From an uncultured Bacillus sp. (GTDB taxonomy: Bacteria > Bacillota > Bacilli > Bacillales > Cytobacillaceae): DNA of 43,730 nt. This document shows, in pieces, positions 30,983-32,953 of the stretch (positions are counted from its first letter, which is position 1; the number at the start of each line of letters is the position of its first letter). The notes beneath the pieces were generated by a model. The model had not been told where the DNA came from and did no database searches. It saw nothing but the letters and a program-made list of their open reading frames with translations. Both the position numbers and the translations under genes were made by a program. Location of the stretch: the NCBI GenBank assembly GCA_963524115.1, contig CAURFY010000001.1, positions 1 to 43,730 of the forward strand. The letters run 5' to 3'.

Positions 30983-31318
30983 TAGTCAAAAAACAACACA
31001 CTGGAGATTGGTGTGTTGTTTTTATTTCTCCTGAAGGATGTTTTAATGTAAGTTTTTCTAGATTCGCCTGTTCCCATGCAACACTTTGACTTCTATTTTT
31101 GTCGATTTTATGAAATCTTAGCTGGATAATCAATGTAAATTAATGTAAACTTTCCCAACCTTTAATAATGTAGGTGTATAATTATCATTGTGTCATCTGG
31201 TGATTTTTGTCACAAATACATAATAGGAATTTACGATAAACACTATGATTTTATTACTTATTACAAGCGTTAGTAATATTTTCATAAATAAAATGACTTC
31301 CGTTGTTAGGAGGACCAA

Positions 31319-31936
31319 ATGGAAAAATCTATAAGGGTGATGATTATCGACAACCATCTATTTACTATCGATGCTATTTCCTATTTTTTCGAAAATGAGG
31401 AAACAGATATTGAAGTAGTTTGTAAGCTAACTGATGGAAAAAGGGCAATCAGTTTGATTAACGAAACTAAGCCAGATATTATTGTGATGGATCCATATTT
31501 AACCAATATAAATGGAGTAGAATTAGCAAGGCAGATTAGTGAGAAATATCAAGATTCGATAAAACTGGTAATGTTTGCAAGCCATTCTTGTGAGGAGTTA
31601 ATAAGAATTCTTTTTAAAATCGGAGTAAATGCTTTTGTACTCAAGGAAGAGCCGTTTAAGGTGCTGATTAATGCTGTTAGGCAAAGCTATTTAGGCAATA
31701 TTTTACTCTCTAATAGAAAAATTTTAAAACATACTAATCTACAATTGACCATGACAGAAATAGAAATACTGCAATTAATTTCACAAGAAAAAAAGAATCA
31801 GGAAATTGCCAAATTATTAAATATGAGTAAAAGAACAGTAGAATATCATATTACCTCGTTATTTCAAAAACTCGATGTTGATTCAAGAGTTGGTGCGATT
31901 ATGAGGGGTGCTCAGAAAGGGCTAATTTACATATAA
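31319..31936 (+). CDS. Orphan NarL/LuxR-family response regulator, ComA-like
   Basis: REC domain (IIDNH, IVMD, VLKE) plus LuxR HTH NQEIA..L.MSKRTVEYHITSLFQKL. Confidence 0.9.
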   Translation: MEKSIRVMIIDNHLFTIDAISYFFENEETDIEVVCKLTDGKRAISLINETKPDIIVMDPYLTNINGVELARQISEKYQDSIKLVMFASHSCEELIRILFKIGVNAFVLKEEPFKVLINAVRQSYLGNILLSNRKILKHTNLQLTMTEIEILQLISQEKKNQEIAKLLNMSKRTVEYHITSLFQKLDVDSRVGAIMRGAQKGLIYI

Positions 31937-32056
31937 ATAATCAATAATGTTGACACATTGGACATAGATCAGATACTTAAACCTCTCGACATTTAAATAC
32001 AGGTTCCTAGTGCATTCTGACTATAAACTCTAAAAAATGTTTTTTTTTGACTCTTT

Positions 32057-32072
32057 TTGCGGAATCGCGCAA
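32057..32072. promoter_or_regulatory. ComA-box-like inverted repeat upstream of the peptide cassette
   Basis: TTGCGG-aatc-GCGCAA versus consensus TTGCGG-N4-CCGCAA (one mismatch). Confidence 0.65.
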
Positions 32073-32228
32073 AAAATATACGAAAACTAACACTAAAATT
32101 GTCGGAAAATACGATGTTTTGGAAAAATGATAAATTATATTATTAGATTAACAAATTGATAAAGGTTAAAAACACGGTTTCATCTTTTTAATCTTTTCAA
32201 TAAAAATGAATAATAGGAGGTGAAATGC

Positions 32229-32318
32229 ATGTTAGCATTAGCTCTTTCTTTAGCAGCAGTACTTGATCTATCTCCAGTATTTGGTCTTTTAGGTGGTTTA
32301 CTAGGTGGTTTACTTTAA
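32229..32318 (+). CDS. 29-aa hydrophobic glycine-zipper peptide, copy 1: MLALALSLAAVLDLSPVFGLLGGLLGGLL
   Basis: AGGAGGTGA RBS with 8-nt GGAGG-ATG spacing; paralogous to copies 2 and 3. Confidence 0.88.
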   Translation: MLALALSLAAVLDLSPVFGLLGGLLGGLL

Positions 32319-32351
32319 TTTTTATTTAAGCAAAGGATGGAGGTGAAATGC

Positions 32352-32441
32352 ATGTTATCATTAGGACTTTCATTAGCAGCATTACTTGATCTAACTCCAG
32401 TGTTTGGTCTTTTAGGCGGTCTACTAGGTGGTTTGCTTTAA
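32352..32441 (+). CDS. 29-aa peptide, copy 2: MLSLGLSLAALLDLTPVFGLLGGLLGGLL
   Basis: GGAGGTGA RBS; same length and frame structure. Confidence 0.88.
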   Translation: MLSLGLSLAALLDLTPVFGLLGGLLGGLL

Positions 32442-32474
32442 TTCTGATTTAAGTAAAGGGCGGAGGTGAAACGC

Positions 32475-32564
32475 ATGTTAGCATTAGCTCTTTCATTAGC
32501 AGCAGTTCTTGATTTAACTCCAGTGTTTGGTCTTTTAGGAGGTCTTCTTGGTGGATTACTTTAA
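32475..32564 (+). CDS. 29-aa peptide, copy 3: MLALALSLAAVLDLTPVFGLLGGLLGGLL
   Basis: GGAGGTGA RBS; differs from copy 1 at 8 synonymous codons and 1 S/T change. Confidence 0.88.
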   Translation: MLALALSLAAVLDLTPVFGLLGGLLGGLL

Positions 32565-32584
32565 TAGGTTACATAATTTTTAAT

Positions 32585-32630
32585 TAATAAAAGAGTCTTC
32601 CAACTCATAAGGTGTAAGACTCTTTTATTA
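32585..32630 (+). terminator. Terminator of the peptide operon (possibly bidirectional)
   Basis: TAATAAAAGAGTCTT...AAGACTCTTTTATTA. Confidence 0.8.
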
Positions 32631-32655: not shown

Positions 32656-32953
32656 TTACAGAAAATATTTCGCGTTTAGTGATTTCTCACATCTACTTAA
32701 TTCATGCGGTGTTCCTTCAAATAGGACCTCTCCACCTTTAATACCACCTTCTGGTCCAATATCAATAATCCAATCTGCCTGTTTCATAATATCTACATTA
32801 ATGGTTGGCCGAGGGTTAAATAACCAATCCCCATTTCTTCAAGTGCCACTAAACGCACGTTGATTTTCTTTTCATCGAAAAACAGGATTGCTTCACTCAC
32901 TGTCATTTCTAGTACTTCTAAGATCGTTTTACTTTTGTCAGGTGTATTTCAGG
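32656..32953 (-). pseudogene. Decayed C-terminal remnant of a UvrA-like (class II/DrrC-type) ABC ATPase
   Basis: KTILEVLEMTVSEAILFF...[11 protein letters not shown] joined out of frame to [30 protein letters not shown]. Confidence 0.85.

Follow-up and report, generated by a model that had tools for sequence, protein, structure and literature searches.

Organization of the Locus

The window, that is, the whole stretch of 43,730 nucleotides analyzed here, carries at positions 31319-32630 a gene for an orphan response regulator, an inverted-repeat box, three short peptide genes and a terminator (table 1). An initial annotation had described this arrangement as a candidate new system composed of a ComA-like regulator, a ComA box and a triple peptide operon, and each of these elements was found where that annotation had placed it. 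Upstream of the module lie genes for a DUF1456 protein and a glycerate kinase, and downstream a UvrA C-terminal remnant, a DUF2231 membrane protein and a solute-binding protein. In agreement with the initial annotation, none of the neighboring genes in the window encodes a sensor kinase, an exporter, a modifying enzyme or an immunity protein. The UvrA remnant does not represent a gene replaced by the module, as the corresponding slot in the closest relative, G001, holds a CdaR-type regulator and a 535-aa kinase.

The peptide frames in the list of open reading frames start earlier (32220..32318, 32337..32441 and 32466..32564) than the conserved ATG codons at 32229, 32352 and 32475, each of which lies about 5 nt past a copy of GGAGGTGA. 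The terminator hairpin escaped the consensus terminator scan because its loop exceeds the limit of that scan. No significant terminator was found between the regulator gene and the box in the window or in G005, and read-through could therefore contribute to the expression of the peptides. About 20 nt downstream of the -10 of the regulator gene there is an inverted repeat, GTGAT-N4-GTCAC, which looks like an operator for some factor; that factor is likely the true input to the module.

Table 1. Features of the regulator and peptide locus (positions in the window)
Feature	Position	Strand	Remarks
Probable promoter of the regulator gene, extended -10 TGTATAAT	31175..31182	+	GTGTATAAT invariant in G000, G005 and G006 (alignment A10)
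Inverted repeat GTGAT-N4-GTCAC, candidate operator	31200..31213	.	GTGAT.TTT.TCAC invariant in three genomes (A10)
Orphan NarL/LuxR-type response regulator, 205 aa, ComA superclade	31319..31936	+	Acid pocket D11-N12, phospho-acceptor D58, helix SKRTVEYHITSLFQKL
Box TTGCGGAATCGCGCAA, inverted repeat TTGCGG-AATC-GCGCAA, putative site of a regulator dimer	32057..32072	.	Sequence conservation
Alternative -10 candidate TAAAAT	32094..32099	+	Box spacing constant, hexamer poorly conserved
TTGTCGG-AAA-ATACGA, possible second site of direct-repeat type	32099..32114	+	CG and TACG invariant in A8
Favored core promoter: weak -35 TGTTTT (32115-32120), 17-nt spacer, -10 TATTAT (32138-32143)	32115..32143	+	TAT.AT invariant in A8
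Peptide gene 1, 29 aa, MLALALSLAAVLDLSPVFGLLGGLLGGLL	32229..32318	+	Shine-Dalgarno (SD) sequence GGAGGTGA at 32216-32223
Peptide gene 2, 29 aa, MLSLGLSLAALLDLTPVFGLLGGLLGGLL	32352..32441	+	Conserved ATG start
Peptide gene 3, 29 aa, MLALALSLAAVLDLTPVFGLLGGLLGGLL	32475..32564	+	Conserved ATG start
Intrinsic terminator, hairpin followed by T-run	32585..32630	+	dG -18.3 kcal/mol, z -4.21, 0/200 shuffles as stable

The Box and the Promoter of the Peptide Genes

The window contains a single exact TTGCG-N6-CGCAA; the expectation from shuffles is 0.05 occurrences, at least one being seen in 5 of 100 shuffles. With one mismatch allowed the motif is not rare in the window (0.79 expected), and the weight of the evidence therefore rests on conservation and not on the window alone. 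The box is invariant as TGCG..T..CGCAA across seven aligned promoter regions (A8), and a TTGCG-type palindrome is kept upstream of the peptide genes in six of the seven peptide-bearing genomes, the exception being G738. In sequence it resembles the inverted repeats of ComA type. Its position before the peptide genes is retained where the regulator gene lies on another contig, as in G369 and in G285, the latter with a perfect palindrome, TTGCGTGATAACGCAA, before four peptide genes. Compared with the ComA target TTGCGG-N4-CCGCAA, as given in an excerpt of PMC4797271, the sequence here has one base changed and is conserved.

Boxes of this type also serve other regulators, for example at L018 before an MMPL gene and in G666, and perfect TTGCGG-N4-CCGCAA sites serve comQ in G457. 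No further regulon target of the orphan regulator was found among the exact TTGCG-N6-CGCAA sites of G000: one of the others falls within an sdhB-like coding sequence, and the remaining one (G000:C243) is conserved in G001, a genome without the orphan regulator. A second response regulator with a ComA-like helix is encoded in G000 behind sigD.

Two hexamers may be considered as the -10 of the peptide genes. The one favored by the alignments belongs to a putative core promoter at 32115-32143 and reads TATGAT in G666; its distance from the ATACGr motif is 23 nt in six promoters (hand count) and 24 nt in G285. It would put the inverted repeat near -85 and the direct repeat beside the -35. The other candidate, TAAAAT, would place the center of the box near -41.5 and is the less favored, its position reading TATAAT in G005 and TGATTT in G006 (A5, A8). 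The element at 32099-32114 consists of two degenerate half-sites 3 nt apart and reads TTGCGG-TAT-ATACGG in G666 and TTGCGT-TAT-ATACAG in G738. In ComA promoters, according to the excerpt of PMC4797271, the inverted repeat is accompanied by a further repeat, degenerate and adjoining a poor -35, and by analogy with the RE3/RE4 sites described there the element may be a second site for the regulator. CodY boxes, Spo0A boxes and alternative sigma promoters were also considered for the TGTCG..ATACG block, and none of them is conserved across lineages (by eye). A weak hint of transcription of the peptide region comes from one RNA-library contig (251 nt, depth 3) covering 32173-32418, uninformative as to transcript start, strand and level.

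A Family of Hydrophobic Peptides

The three peptides of the window are 29 aa long each and very hydrophobic, and gave no match in Pfam or NCBIfam. In all 31 pairs of peptide genes compared, synonymous differences exceed non-synonymous ones (pS > pN), as judged from which the genes are real and under purifying selection; copies 1 and 3 of the window, for instance, differ by eight synonymous codons and one non-synonymous codon. Gene callers mostly overlook these genes. Searched with a profile, 1.84 billion representative proteins yielded two clusters only, a metagenome pattern scan gave no relative, and a pattern scan of genome contigs, limited to the N-terminus of the g1 type, gave a single record from Bacillus marasmi, which is the G005 locus. 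The best match in the ESM Atlas (0.79) was below any useful level. Weak matches to the peptide profile were also seen within long frames of G207 (148-aa frame) and G534 (249-aa frame), which we treated as chance.

The peptides have an Eisenberg mean hydrophobicity of 0.63-0.72 and a net charge of -1 or -2, and contain no K, R, H or W. The initial annotation had taken them to be amphipathic, which the hydrophobic moments do not support: muH is 0.06-0.09 in the g1 clade, where 42-69% of shuffled sequences reach values as high, and 0.16-0.17 in the Schinkia clade. The peptides are uniformly hydrophobic. Since they contain nothing basic, they depart from the positive-inside rule that membrane proteins usually follow. 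Conservation begins at Met1 and extends over the whole length, N-terminal half included, with neither a basic n-region nor a double-glycine leader, and Asp13 is invariant in an otherwise hydrophobic sequence. The window peptides carry a glycine zipper, S/T15-G19-G23-G27, with G19, G23 and G27 on one face, which is prolonged in the G285 peptides (G19-G23-G27-G31-G35); it conforms to the (G/A/S)xxxGxxxG pattern by which transmembrane glycine-zipper peptides are commonly defined. For the 33-aa member from G006, AlphaFold2 predicted one helix spanning residues 2-32 (pLDDT 85.7), and a complex prediction with four peptide copies scored 0.10, which is evidence neither way. Operons hold from one to four copies of these leaderless genes in tandem.

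The Regulator and Its Ancestry

The regulator matches the Pfam families Response_reg (3.3e-17, residues 7-121) and GerE (3e-16, residues 142-195) and aligns over its full length to the structures of VraR, DesR and NarL, having the receiver and the LuxR-type helix-turn-helix of the NarL/FixJ family; it reached no NCBIfam equivalog cut-off. Against the ComA structures 2krf and 3ulq it scored 42.4 bits, and the recognition helices (lskrsieysltsifnkl in 2krf, mskrtveyhitslfqkl in the regulator) have SKR..EY..TS.F.KL in common. The ComA helix quoted in the initial annotation was thus right, and so was its resemblance to the one found here. LiaR matches the regulator equally well overall (43.3 bits) but is devoid of the EY motif. 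The regulator, an orphan with a recognition helix like that of ComA, is not a ComA orthologue: it shares only 25% identity with the genuine ComA of the comQXPA operon in G457, where the orphan coexists with it, and belongs to a separate clade.

In a tree of 44 rows, the orphan clade was monophyletic (support 100/99) and the ComA-like rows formed a clade of their own (100/100); with G738 added, the orphan clade kept an SH-aLRT of 91. Its nearest outgroups lie in cassettes made up of a small ORF, a polyprenyl synthase, a HisKA_3 kinase of 695-735 aa and the regulator. The closest relatives of the orphan thus sit in comQXPA-like cassettes. On the evidence of tree and gene order, the orphan clade descended from the regulators of such cassettes and lost the kinase, prenyltransferase and pheromone genes, and intermediates of this loss are visible in G666, G330 and Priestia pBM700. 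Downstream (3') of its regulator gene, G666 retains the inverted repeat, the direct repeat and a TATGAT promoter. A plasmid search returned only kinase-linked relatives from Priestia (42.5% identity), a phage search none, and a metagenome pattern scan only matches of 27-32% identity.

The acid pocket of the regulator reads DN and aligns to the DD of VraR. The DN pair was found in the window, in G005, in G006 and in the eight other clade members read, with DDN in G738, whereas the kinase-linked relatives have DD. The window regulator keeps D58 and K109, and the phospho-acceptor position is occupied by Glu in G005 and G006. The clade thus departs from the canonical set of residues of phosphorylation-dependent regulators (DD pocket, acceptor Asp, Thr/Ser and Lys). 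Its members are intact and 73-87% identical among close relatives. No kinase gene adjoins the orphan regulator in G000, G005, G006, G457 or G738. A search for comQXP, proposed in the initial annotation, gave no ComX Pfam match in G000, G005 or G006, with a model that performs poorly even in B. subtilis. In the same three genomes the ComP-like query returned kinase-core matches only (26-31% identity) and no kinase of full length. With neither ComX nor ComP found there and with a degenerate receiver pocket, control of the module by cell density looks doubtful.

Distribution of the Module

The orphan regulator and the peptides were found together in seven genomes from three GTDB families of Bacilli. 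In genus g1 both are present in three of the seven genomes and both absent from the other four, where the best match to the regulator is only 28-34% identical. Among the 401 genomes sampled from the order, the peptides occur in G000, G285, G369 and G457, exactly the four with a full-length regulator of at least 48% identity; among the 401 sampled from the class, they occur in G000 and G738, both with a regulator of the orphan clade. These counts come from samples (about 400 genomes each for order and class) in which kin are not independent, and G000 is only 74% complete.

The regulator gene adjoins the peptide genes in G000, G005, G006 and G457. The linkage, whose absence from other genomes the initial annotation had named as a ground for rejecting the system, is thus recurrent. 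Moreover, the neighborhood differs between lineages and other genes occupy the slot in G001; the pair therefore travels as a unit. In G738 the orphan regulator and five peptide genes are unlinked; the promoters of the latter look sigma-A-like and are without a clear box, and a perfect box lies 3' of the regulator gene, where no peptide gene follows. In G333 the orphan regulator is present as a degenerate copy, and the peptides have been lost along with it.

Discussion

From the parts of the locus, their conservation, the co-occurrence of regulator and peptides, the purifying selection on the peptide genes and the ancestry of the regulator, all of which can be read directly in the genomes, we infer how the module may work: regulator binding, activation, promoter location, membrane insertion and any phenotype belong to this model. 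A dimer of the regulator would bind the inverted repeat TTGCGG-N4-nCGCAA that lies downstream of the regulator gene and probably also the degenerate direct repeat abutting the weak -35. Binding would activate a sigma-A-type promoter, as ComA does at class I plus class II promoters, and from this promoter one to four genes in tandem (three in the window) would be transcribed, each preceded by a strong ribosome-binding site. The predicted products are leaderless, unmodified peptides of 29-37 aa, each a single long helix with an (S/T/G)xxxGxxxG zipper running down one side, which are expected to enter lipid bilayers and to associate by helix packing. We lean, with some confidence, toward the view that a kinase-less activator of the ComA family, working independently of phosphorylation, drives abundant membrane-inserting peptides in a self-contained two-part module. 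Such peptides would be made in quantity on the command of the regulator and would be membrane-active, resembling the phenol-soluble modulins (PSMs) in genetic logic but not in chemistry. The initial reading stands as regards the orphan regulator, its helix, the box, the linkage and the kin in quorum-sensing cassettes, and had to be given up as regards amphipathicity; the regulator is also not an orthologue of ComA.

What the peptides do once made, whether to the producer's own membrane or to neighbors, may be pictured in more than one way. They might act on the membrane of the producer itself, as pore- or channel-forming glycine-zipper proteolipids comparable to holins or type I toxins, causing depolarization, dormancy, lysis or release of extracellular DNA, or tuning some membrane property under stress. 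The locus has no signal peptide, exporter or immunity gene, and the single predicted helix is long enough to span a bilayer, both of which fit this picture. On the other side, strong SDs and up to four or five gene copies point to a high output, odd for a self-toxin; type I toxins usually have charged tails, which these peptides lack; and no antitoxin or antisense feature was noticed, although no systematic search was made for one. The motif itself speaks for such a role, a glycine zipper being needed for the membrane toxicity of TelE, as reported in an excerpt of PMC10434224. Overall we regard an action on the producer's own membrane as possible, if on the unlikely side. Somewhat unlikely, in our view, is bulk export by an unlinked transporter, as for staphylococcal PSMs, which would put the peptides, under density control, outside the cell as a ribosomally made surfactant, a spreading factor or a cytolysin. 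Leaderless tandem genes with strong SDs behind what would be an activator-dependent promoter, the ancestry of the regulator in quorum-sensing cassettes and the fact that ComA drives surfactin synthesis in B. subtilis all favor export, but peptides whose muH in the g1 clade equals that of shuffled sequence are not amphipathic, and poor solubility is to be expected of such hydrophobic, anionic peptides. The locus offers no adjacent exporter, ComX and full-length ComP-like kinases were not detected in the three genomes searched for them, and a degenerate receiver, in two species with Glu as the phospho-site, speaks against phosphorylation of the classical, density-dependent kind.

The box may instead be used by another ComA-type regulator, such as the genuine ComA in Schinkia or the ComA-like one behind sigD in G000, leaving the orphan as a bystander or a decaying gene. 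Further response regulators with the EY helix in G000 and G457, the comQ sites of G457 and the degenerate copy in G333 could be read in this sense. Nevertheless, regulator, box and peptides are all kept in G005 and G006, where Schinkia ComA has no match closer than 34-37% identity, the orphan regulators show no decay among close relatives, the peptides were found only in genomes with a regulator of the orphan clade (in the samples searched) and G333 lost both together, which makes a bystander role very unlikely. Still more improbable is that the peptides are precursors of a hydrophobic signal feeding back on a kinase-less, ligand-controlled regulator, with the invariant Asp marking the start of the mature form, as in streptococcal SHP. 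The conserved Asp13 in an otherwise hydrophobic peptide, the need of an orphan regulator with a degenerate pocket for some other input and its descent from pheromone systems agree with a signal; the lack of the basic N-terminus of SHP precursors, multiple tandem gene copies, which are unusual for a signal, and conservation over the whole length do not. In addition, Rgg/SHP systems have an RRNPP-type receptor beside the peptide gene, whereas the regulator here has REC and GerE domains.

Returning to the kinase-less activator and its membrane-inserting peptides, we found no description of such a regulator and peptide system in the literature, in sources available in part and outside subscription journals, and the peptide family is without a Pfam or NCBIfam model. 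For a micropeptide from bacteria its chemistry is unusual, combining the absence of basic residues with a single invariant Asp and an extended glycine zipper. The regulator lineage illustrates, in a handful of genomes, that a quorum-sensing response regulator can lose its kinase, its pheromone and residues of its pocket and yet keep its DNA site and promoter design. With intermediates at hand, the evolution of atypical, phosphorylation-independent regulators becomes testable in a small system. Should the peptides prove surface-active or membrane-damaging, they would constitute a PSM-like system outside the staphylococci; should they act on the membrane of the producer, a new regulated proteolipid. 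Export and a surfactant role being pure conjecture at this stage, we propose only tentatively that a ComA-type lineage without kinase and pheromone has been hard-wired to ribosomal, unmodified, leaderless, anionic glycine-zipper peptides of lipopeptide-like character as a gene-encoded counterpart of surfactin or PSMs, a secreted public good in soil Bacillales that would be surface-active or would damage membranes. It is just as tentative that surfactant production in Bacillales would then be governed by ComA-family regulators, with or without nonribosomal peptide synthetases (NRPS). The distribution of the module is narrow, and a regulator beside genes for small hydrophobic peptides is not new in kind.

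Comparison with Known Systems

In staphylococci, AgrA drives the psm-alpha and psm-beta operons, whose products, like those of the genes described here, are short helical peptides that are almost identical to one another, leaderless and unmodified; an exporter is adjacent in neither case. The analogy drawn in the initial annotation therefore holds for the leaderless tandem genes and the absence of processing signals, but it breaks down on amphipathicity. AgrA is a LytTR regulator with its own kinase and pheromone, and PSMs are amphipathic; the present peptides are not, and bear no sequence relation to PSMs (no Pfam family matched). At the locus itself, no Pmt-type exporter adjoins the module. 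The leaderless multi-peptide bacteriocins aureocin A70 and garvicin KS likewise come from three or four genes in tandem, the products being similar to one another and about 30 aa long. Those peptides are cationic and rich in Trp and Lys, and are accompanied by ABC transporter or immunity genes, whereas here they are anionic and no such genes are adjacent, which sets them apart from leaderless class II bacteriocins.

A further parallel in layout is RamR and ramCSAB/SapB of Streptomyces, in which an orphan, atypical NarL-type regulator also stands beside the genes of a small peptide that is hydrophobic and surface-active. That peptide, SapB, is a lanthipeptide and depends on a modifying enzyme as well as on a transporter; the system described here belongs to another phylum and has no modification genes. 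With glycine-zipper toxins and type I toxin peptides the family shares a GxxxGxxxG face on a small hydrophobic helix, as in the C-terminal zipper of TelE, a T7SS (type VII secretion) effector according to the excerpt of PMC10434224. It differs from them by its multi-copy genes with strong SDs, its uncharged tails, and a context without a secretion system or any antisense partner noticed.

Another close counterpart is ComA of the B. subtilis ComQXPA system, a NarL-type response regulator whose targets include srfA and rapA and which has the same SKR..EY..TS.F.KL helix as the orphan. ComP, ComQ and ComX are missing from the vicinity of the present module, and the receiver differs by its DN pocket and, in two species, by Glu at the phospho-site. 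The architecture of the candidate sites resembles that of ComA promoters, in which TTGCGG hexamers form an inverted repeat with a gap of 4 nt and a degenerate repeat lies by a weak -35 (excerpt of PMC4797271); one half-site reads GCGCAA or ACGCAA here and not CCGCAA, and the spacer of the direct repeat measures 3 nt as opposed to 5 nt in ComA. The output also differs, the orphan having as its putative target a set of ribosomal peptides in place of an NRPS operon.

Organization of the Module

The orphan regulator (a NarL/LuxR response regulator without a kinase beside it), the box (a TTGCG-type inverted repeat, its presumed site), three tandem genes for 29-aa hydrophobic peptides and the terminator are all present in the window where an initial annotation had placed them. 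None of 200 shuffled sequences was as stable as the terminator hairpin. The module is flanked upstream by genes for a DUF1456 protein and a glycerate kinase, and downstream by a UvrA C-terminal remnant, a DUF2231 membrane protein and a solute-binding protein; with these neighbours annotated, no partner kinase, exporter or modifying enzyme adjoins it in the window, as had been noted before.

Features of the module and of related loci
Feature	Location	Strand	Remarks
Extended -10 TGTATAAT, then ~20 nt further on inverted repeat GTGAT-N4-RTCAC	31175-31213		upstream of regulator
Regulator ORF, 205 aa	31319..31936	+	ORF listing
Box TTGCGGAATCGCGCAA	32057-32072		sequence; starts 121 nt past regulator stop
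Alternative -10 TAAAAT	32094-32099		would set box centre at -41.5
CG + TACG block, TTGTCGG-AAA-ATACGA	32099-32114
TAT.AT hexamer, TATTAT	32138-32143		favoured candidate -10
RNA contig of 251 nt, library run X1	32173-32418		five additional letters (TTTAA) at 32313, just past the coding end of peptide gene 1; otherwise 95-99% identical to window
Peptide gene starts (conserved ATG)	32229, 32352, 32475		each ATG 5 nt past GGAGGTGA
Terminator hairpin + T-run, end of unit	32585-32630		dG -18.3 kcal/mol, z -4.2
Two short frames, leftovers of UvrA-like gene	32656-32906	-
43-aa piece	32659-32787		matches C-terminus of UvrA structures (E 4e-17)
44-nt palindrome ACGCAAATCGCATTGCGG-GATA-CCGCAATGCGATTTGCGT	L087 2150-2215 (G738:C177)		3' of orphan regulator; nested half-sites inside
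Palindrome TTGCGTGATAACGCAA, intergenic	L054 999-1014 (G000:C243); L068 (G001)
Second regulator	L084 5344-5985 (G000:C8); L073 (G001)
comQ-comX-comP-comA operon	L059 (G457:C35:1-7200)		second perfect box ~10 kb off
56-74-aa ORF before, not after, prenyltransferase gene	L092 1617-1784; L090 1397-1618; pBM700 138118-138291

The slot holding the UvrA leftovers has been rearranged, because most of that gene is missing. In G001, the closest relative of the window's genome (G000; glycerate kinases 92% identical), the module's place between the flanking genes is taken by a CdaR-type regulator and a 535-aa kinase, and the module's surroundings vary from lineage to lineage. Ahead of the regulator, the extended -10 and the GTGAT-N4-RTCAC repeat are both kept in G000, G005 and G006; the repeat is likely an operator for another factor, and possibly the actual input to the module.

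Coding Evidence and Chemistry of the Peptides

Neither Pfam nor NCBIfam gave a match to the peptides at E up to 1, and the only hits of a profile search over 1.84 billion representative proteins were two 29-aa clusters. Twelve peptide genes from six genomes were compared by codon, in pairs within two length classes, omitting copy 1 of genome G285 (alignable only with gaps), and pS exceeded pN in 31 of 31 pairs. Copies 1 and 3 of the window differ by eight synonymous and one non-synonymous codons (pS 0.32, pN 0.03), and copies 2 and 4 of G285 have a pS of 0.38 and a pN of 0.01; the tandem copies are therefore old duplicates held alike at the protein level, the three in the window being 86-97% identical among themselves. 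Conservation starts at Met1, and the in-frame codons 5' of it vary among copies. Judged by these patterns, the small ORFs are real genes. The X1 contig, whose source is a related strain and not G000, gives a weak hint of their transcription.

Fifteen peptide members share nine invariant positions (M1, L6, L8, D13, L14, V17, G22, L24 and L28). The window and G005 have peptides of 29 aa, G006 of 33 aa, family f18 of 35-37 aa and G738 of 31 aa. Lys, Arg and His occur in none of them, net charge is -1 or -2 and Eisenberg mean hydrophobicity 0.63-0.72. The peptide had been described as amphipathic, but the helical hydrophobic moment of the window clade, 0.06-0.09, is matched by 42-69% of shuffles, and at this level the peptides are not amphipathic in the usual sense. 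S/T15, G19, G23 and G27 follow at four-residue steps on the same helix face as G22 and G26, and the run in G285 is G19-G23-G27-G31-G35; by this spacing, the ordered glycines are a glycine zipper. AlphaFold2 predicted one helix over residues 2-32 (mean pLDDT 85.7) for the 33-aa peptide of G006 with the family alignment.

Distribution of Peptides and Regulator

Searches were six-frame, in samples that hold related genomes and are not independent trials. Peptides were found in three of seven genomes of genus g1 (G000, G005, G006), three of the eight of family f18 (all searched), four of an order-wide sample of 401 (G000, G285, G369, G457) and two of a class-wide sample of 401 (G000, G738). The 262 other genomes of family f1, which includes g1, gave one more weak match, 17 residues inside a 148-aa frame, and the order-wide sample one extra weak profile match, inside a 249-aa frame; both are treated as chance.

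G005 and G006 have the gene order of the window: their regulators are 75-76% identical to that of the window, and box TTGCGGAATCACGCAA, a pair of peptide genes and a terminator follow. The regulator of G457 (53%), near-identical to a protein named Schinkia azotoformans, is followed by a strong terminator, the same 16-mer inverted and one 37-aa peptide gene. Box and peptide gene lie at one contig's end in G369, with the regulator at the end of another contig, while G285 has a perfect palindrome, TTGCGTGATAACGCAA, then four tandem peptide genes, and its regulator on a separate contig. Five peptide genes at two loci in G738 have sigma-A-like promoters without a clear box; the orphan regulator is elsewhere, and its 44-nt palindrome surrounds a perfect TTGCGGGATACCGCAA, which no peptide gene follows. 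At that locus, the next ORF identified, an SLH-type gene, begins ~370 nt beyond the palindrome, and several TGTCGAA (Spo0A-box-like) motifs were spotted by eye ahead of it. In G333 the regulator is broken, the box present and the peptide absent.

The linkage first noted in the window thus recurs, the regulator adjoining the peptide genes in four of seven peptide-bearing genomes (linkage is known for six) and the box preceding them in six of seven. G001-G004 of genus g1 have neither peptides nor an orthologous regulator (best match 28-34% identical), and in the order-wide sample a full-length regulator at 48% identity or above occurs in the four peptide genomes and in no others. Regulator and peptides are present or absent together.

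Ancestry of the Regulator

Pfam assigns the regulator a receiver domain (Response_reg, 3.3e-17) and a LuxR/GerE helix-turn-helix (3e-16); the protein reached no NCBIfam equivalog cut-off (best MctR, 93 bits where 300 are needed, and NarL, 92 of 250). Against solved structures, its helix-turn-helix scored about equally with LiaR (43.3 bits) and ComA (42.4 bits). The recognition helices of ComA (2krf, 'skrsieysltsifnkl') and of the window regulator ('skrtveyhitslfqkl') share a pattern that differs from that of LiaR, bearing out the resemblance reported earlier. The regulator is no orthologue of ComA, being 25% identical to the ComA of the complete comQ-comX-comP-comA operon of G457.

In a tree of 44 regulators from the genomes searched (one duplicate row removed), ten were labelled kinase-linked, with a long adjoining frame in seven and none in three. 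The peptide-associated orphans formed one clade (100/99), joined by a group of kinase-linked regulators (95/89) and then by ComA-like rows (99/96), with LiaR-like and other NarL regulators outside. In a second tree, with G738 and genome G666 added and nine distant rows left out, G738 grouped with the orphans (SH-aLRT 91), next to G666 and locus L018 (95). Cassettes in G666 and G330 comprise a small ORF, a polyprenyl-synthase family protein, a 695-735-aa HisKA_3 kinase and the regulator, an order also annotated on Priestia megaterium plasmid pBM700; in gene content, all three correspond to comQXPA-like quorum-sensing cassettes. L018 (genome G323) is accompanied by a 764-aa kinase but by no prenyltransferase, and a perfect TTGCGGAACTCCGCAA comes after it, ahead of an MMPL gene. 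With its nearest relatives in comQXPA-like cassettes, the orphan is therefore a broad-sense ComA-family regulator that lost its partners. The search for comQXP proposed in the initial annotation gave no ComX Pfam match in G000, nor in G005 or G006, with a model that is weak, and the G666 kinase as query gave kinase-core matches only (26-31% identity) in G000, G001, G005, G006 and G738.

The 56-74-aa ORFs come from those comQXPA-like cassettes whose regulators are closest to the orphan. Those of L092, L090 and pBM700 have no ComX Pfam match, and the small ORF of G330 ends in ...KKEGNLWV; such an ORF may be a pheromone precursor in altered gene order.

The acid pocket reads DD in kinase-linked relatives, DN in the window, G005, G006 and eight other orphans read, and DDN in G738, and the acceptor Asp is replaced by Glu in G005 and G006. 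As far as these residues tell, pocket decay went along with partner loss. The orphan regulator presumably works without phosphorylation; its activity would then depend on how much of it is present or on another partner.

Box and Promoter

By chance, the window should contain 0.05 exact TTGCG-N6-CGCAA sites, or 0.79 with one mismatch allowed; the case for the box is one of conservation, the window alone proving little. G000 has three exact sites against none for the reversed control, and four other genomes searched have 2-4 against 0-1. One of the three lies inside coding sequence, and that on contig C243, near flagellar genes, is kept in G001, a genome without the orphan regulator. The C243 palindrome follows the terminator of a fliT-like gene, precedes a 105-aa ORF without a Pfam match, and is a possible target of the regulator in the flagellar operon. 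The second regulator of G000 and G001, directly 3' of flhA-flhF-flhG-sigD, carries a helix of ComA-like pattern (GQRSFEYSLTKIF) and shares 46% identity with Schinkia ComA. No ComP lies beside this regulator, which looks like a ComA-type regulator within a flagellar operon. A perfect TTGCGGAAAACCGCAA upstream of comQ in G457 suggests autoregulation of the quorum-sensing operon. Going by these sites, the box type is not private to the orphan regulator.

Seven aligned promoter regions share three invariant elements: TGCG..T..CGCAA, a CG + TACG block and a TAT.AT hexamer. Counted by hand, 23 nt separate ATACGr from the hexamer in the window, G005, G006, G457, G369 and G666, which would put a weak -35 (TGTTTT) directly beside the block; the figure for G285 is 24 nt. 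The block can be read as two half-sites 3 nt apart in G666, G285 and G738 (e.g. TTGCGG-TAT-ATACGG), and G005 and G006 have an extra TTGCGT 3 nt 5' of the inverted repeat. TATTAT is favoured as the -10 over TAAAAT, a type of hexamer less conserved than TAT.AT. Between regulator and box, G457 has a clear terminator (z -5.8) and G006 a moderate one (z -2.8), but neither the window nor G005 has a significant one, so read-through from the regulator gene is possible in the window.

Discussion

The evidence best supports a dedicated activator-target pair, which would yield membrane-inserting glycine-zipper helices in quantity; an abundant product is favoured because the genes are multi-copy and their ribosome-binding sites strong. 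The initial annotation had drawn an analogy to the AgrA-driven PSM genes of staphylococci, and a rival in that line is export of the peptides for an extracellular surface-active or lytic role; the missing amphipathicity and exporter weaken a simple PSM analogy. The same helices might act on the producer's own membrane, or the peptides might be a signalling precursor. The orphan regulator could also be a bystander, with another regulator using the peptide box: the second ComA-like helix in G000 and the box sites found elsewhere would agree with this, but it is a poor fit to G005 and G006, neither of which gave a close ComA match.

The literature outside subscription journals yielded no account of either the peptides or the module. 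Regulators next to genes for small hydrophobic peptides are familiar in kind; what is new is the peptide family, its chemistry and a kinase-less ComA descendant keeping the ComA promoter design. At ComA promoters, as described in PMC4797271, the inverted repeat serves as class I site, and the class II site is a degenerate direct repeat beside a poor -35. The module promoter likewise combines an inverted repeat with a degenerate repeat beside a weak -35, although the spacer of the direct repeat is 3 nt, against 5 nt for ComA in that source.
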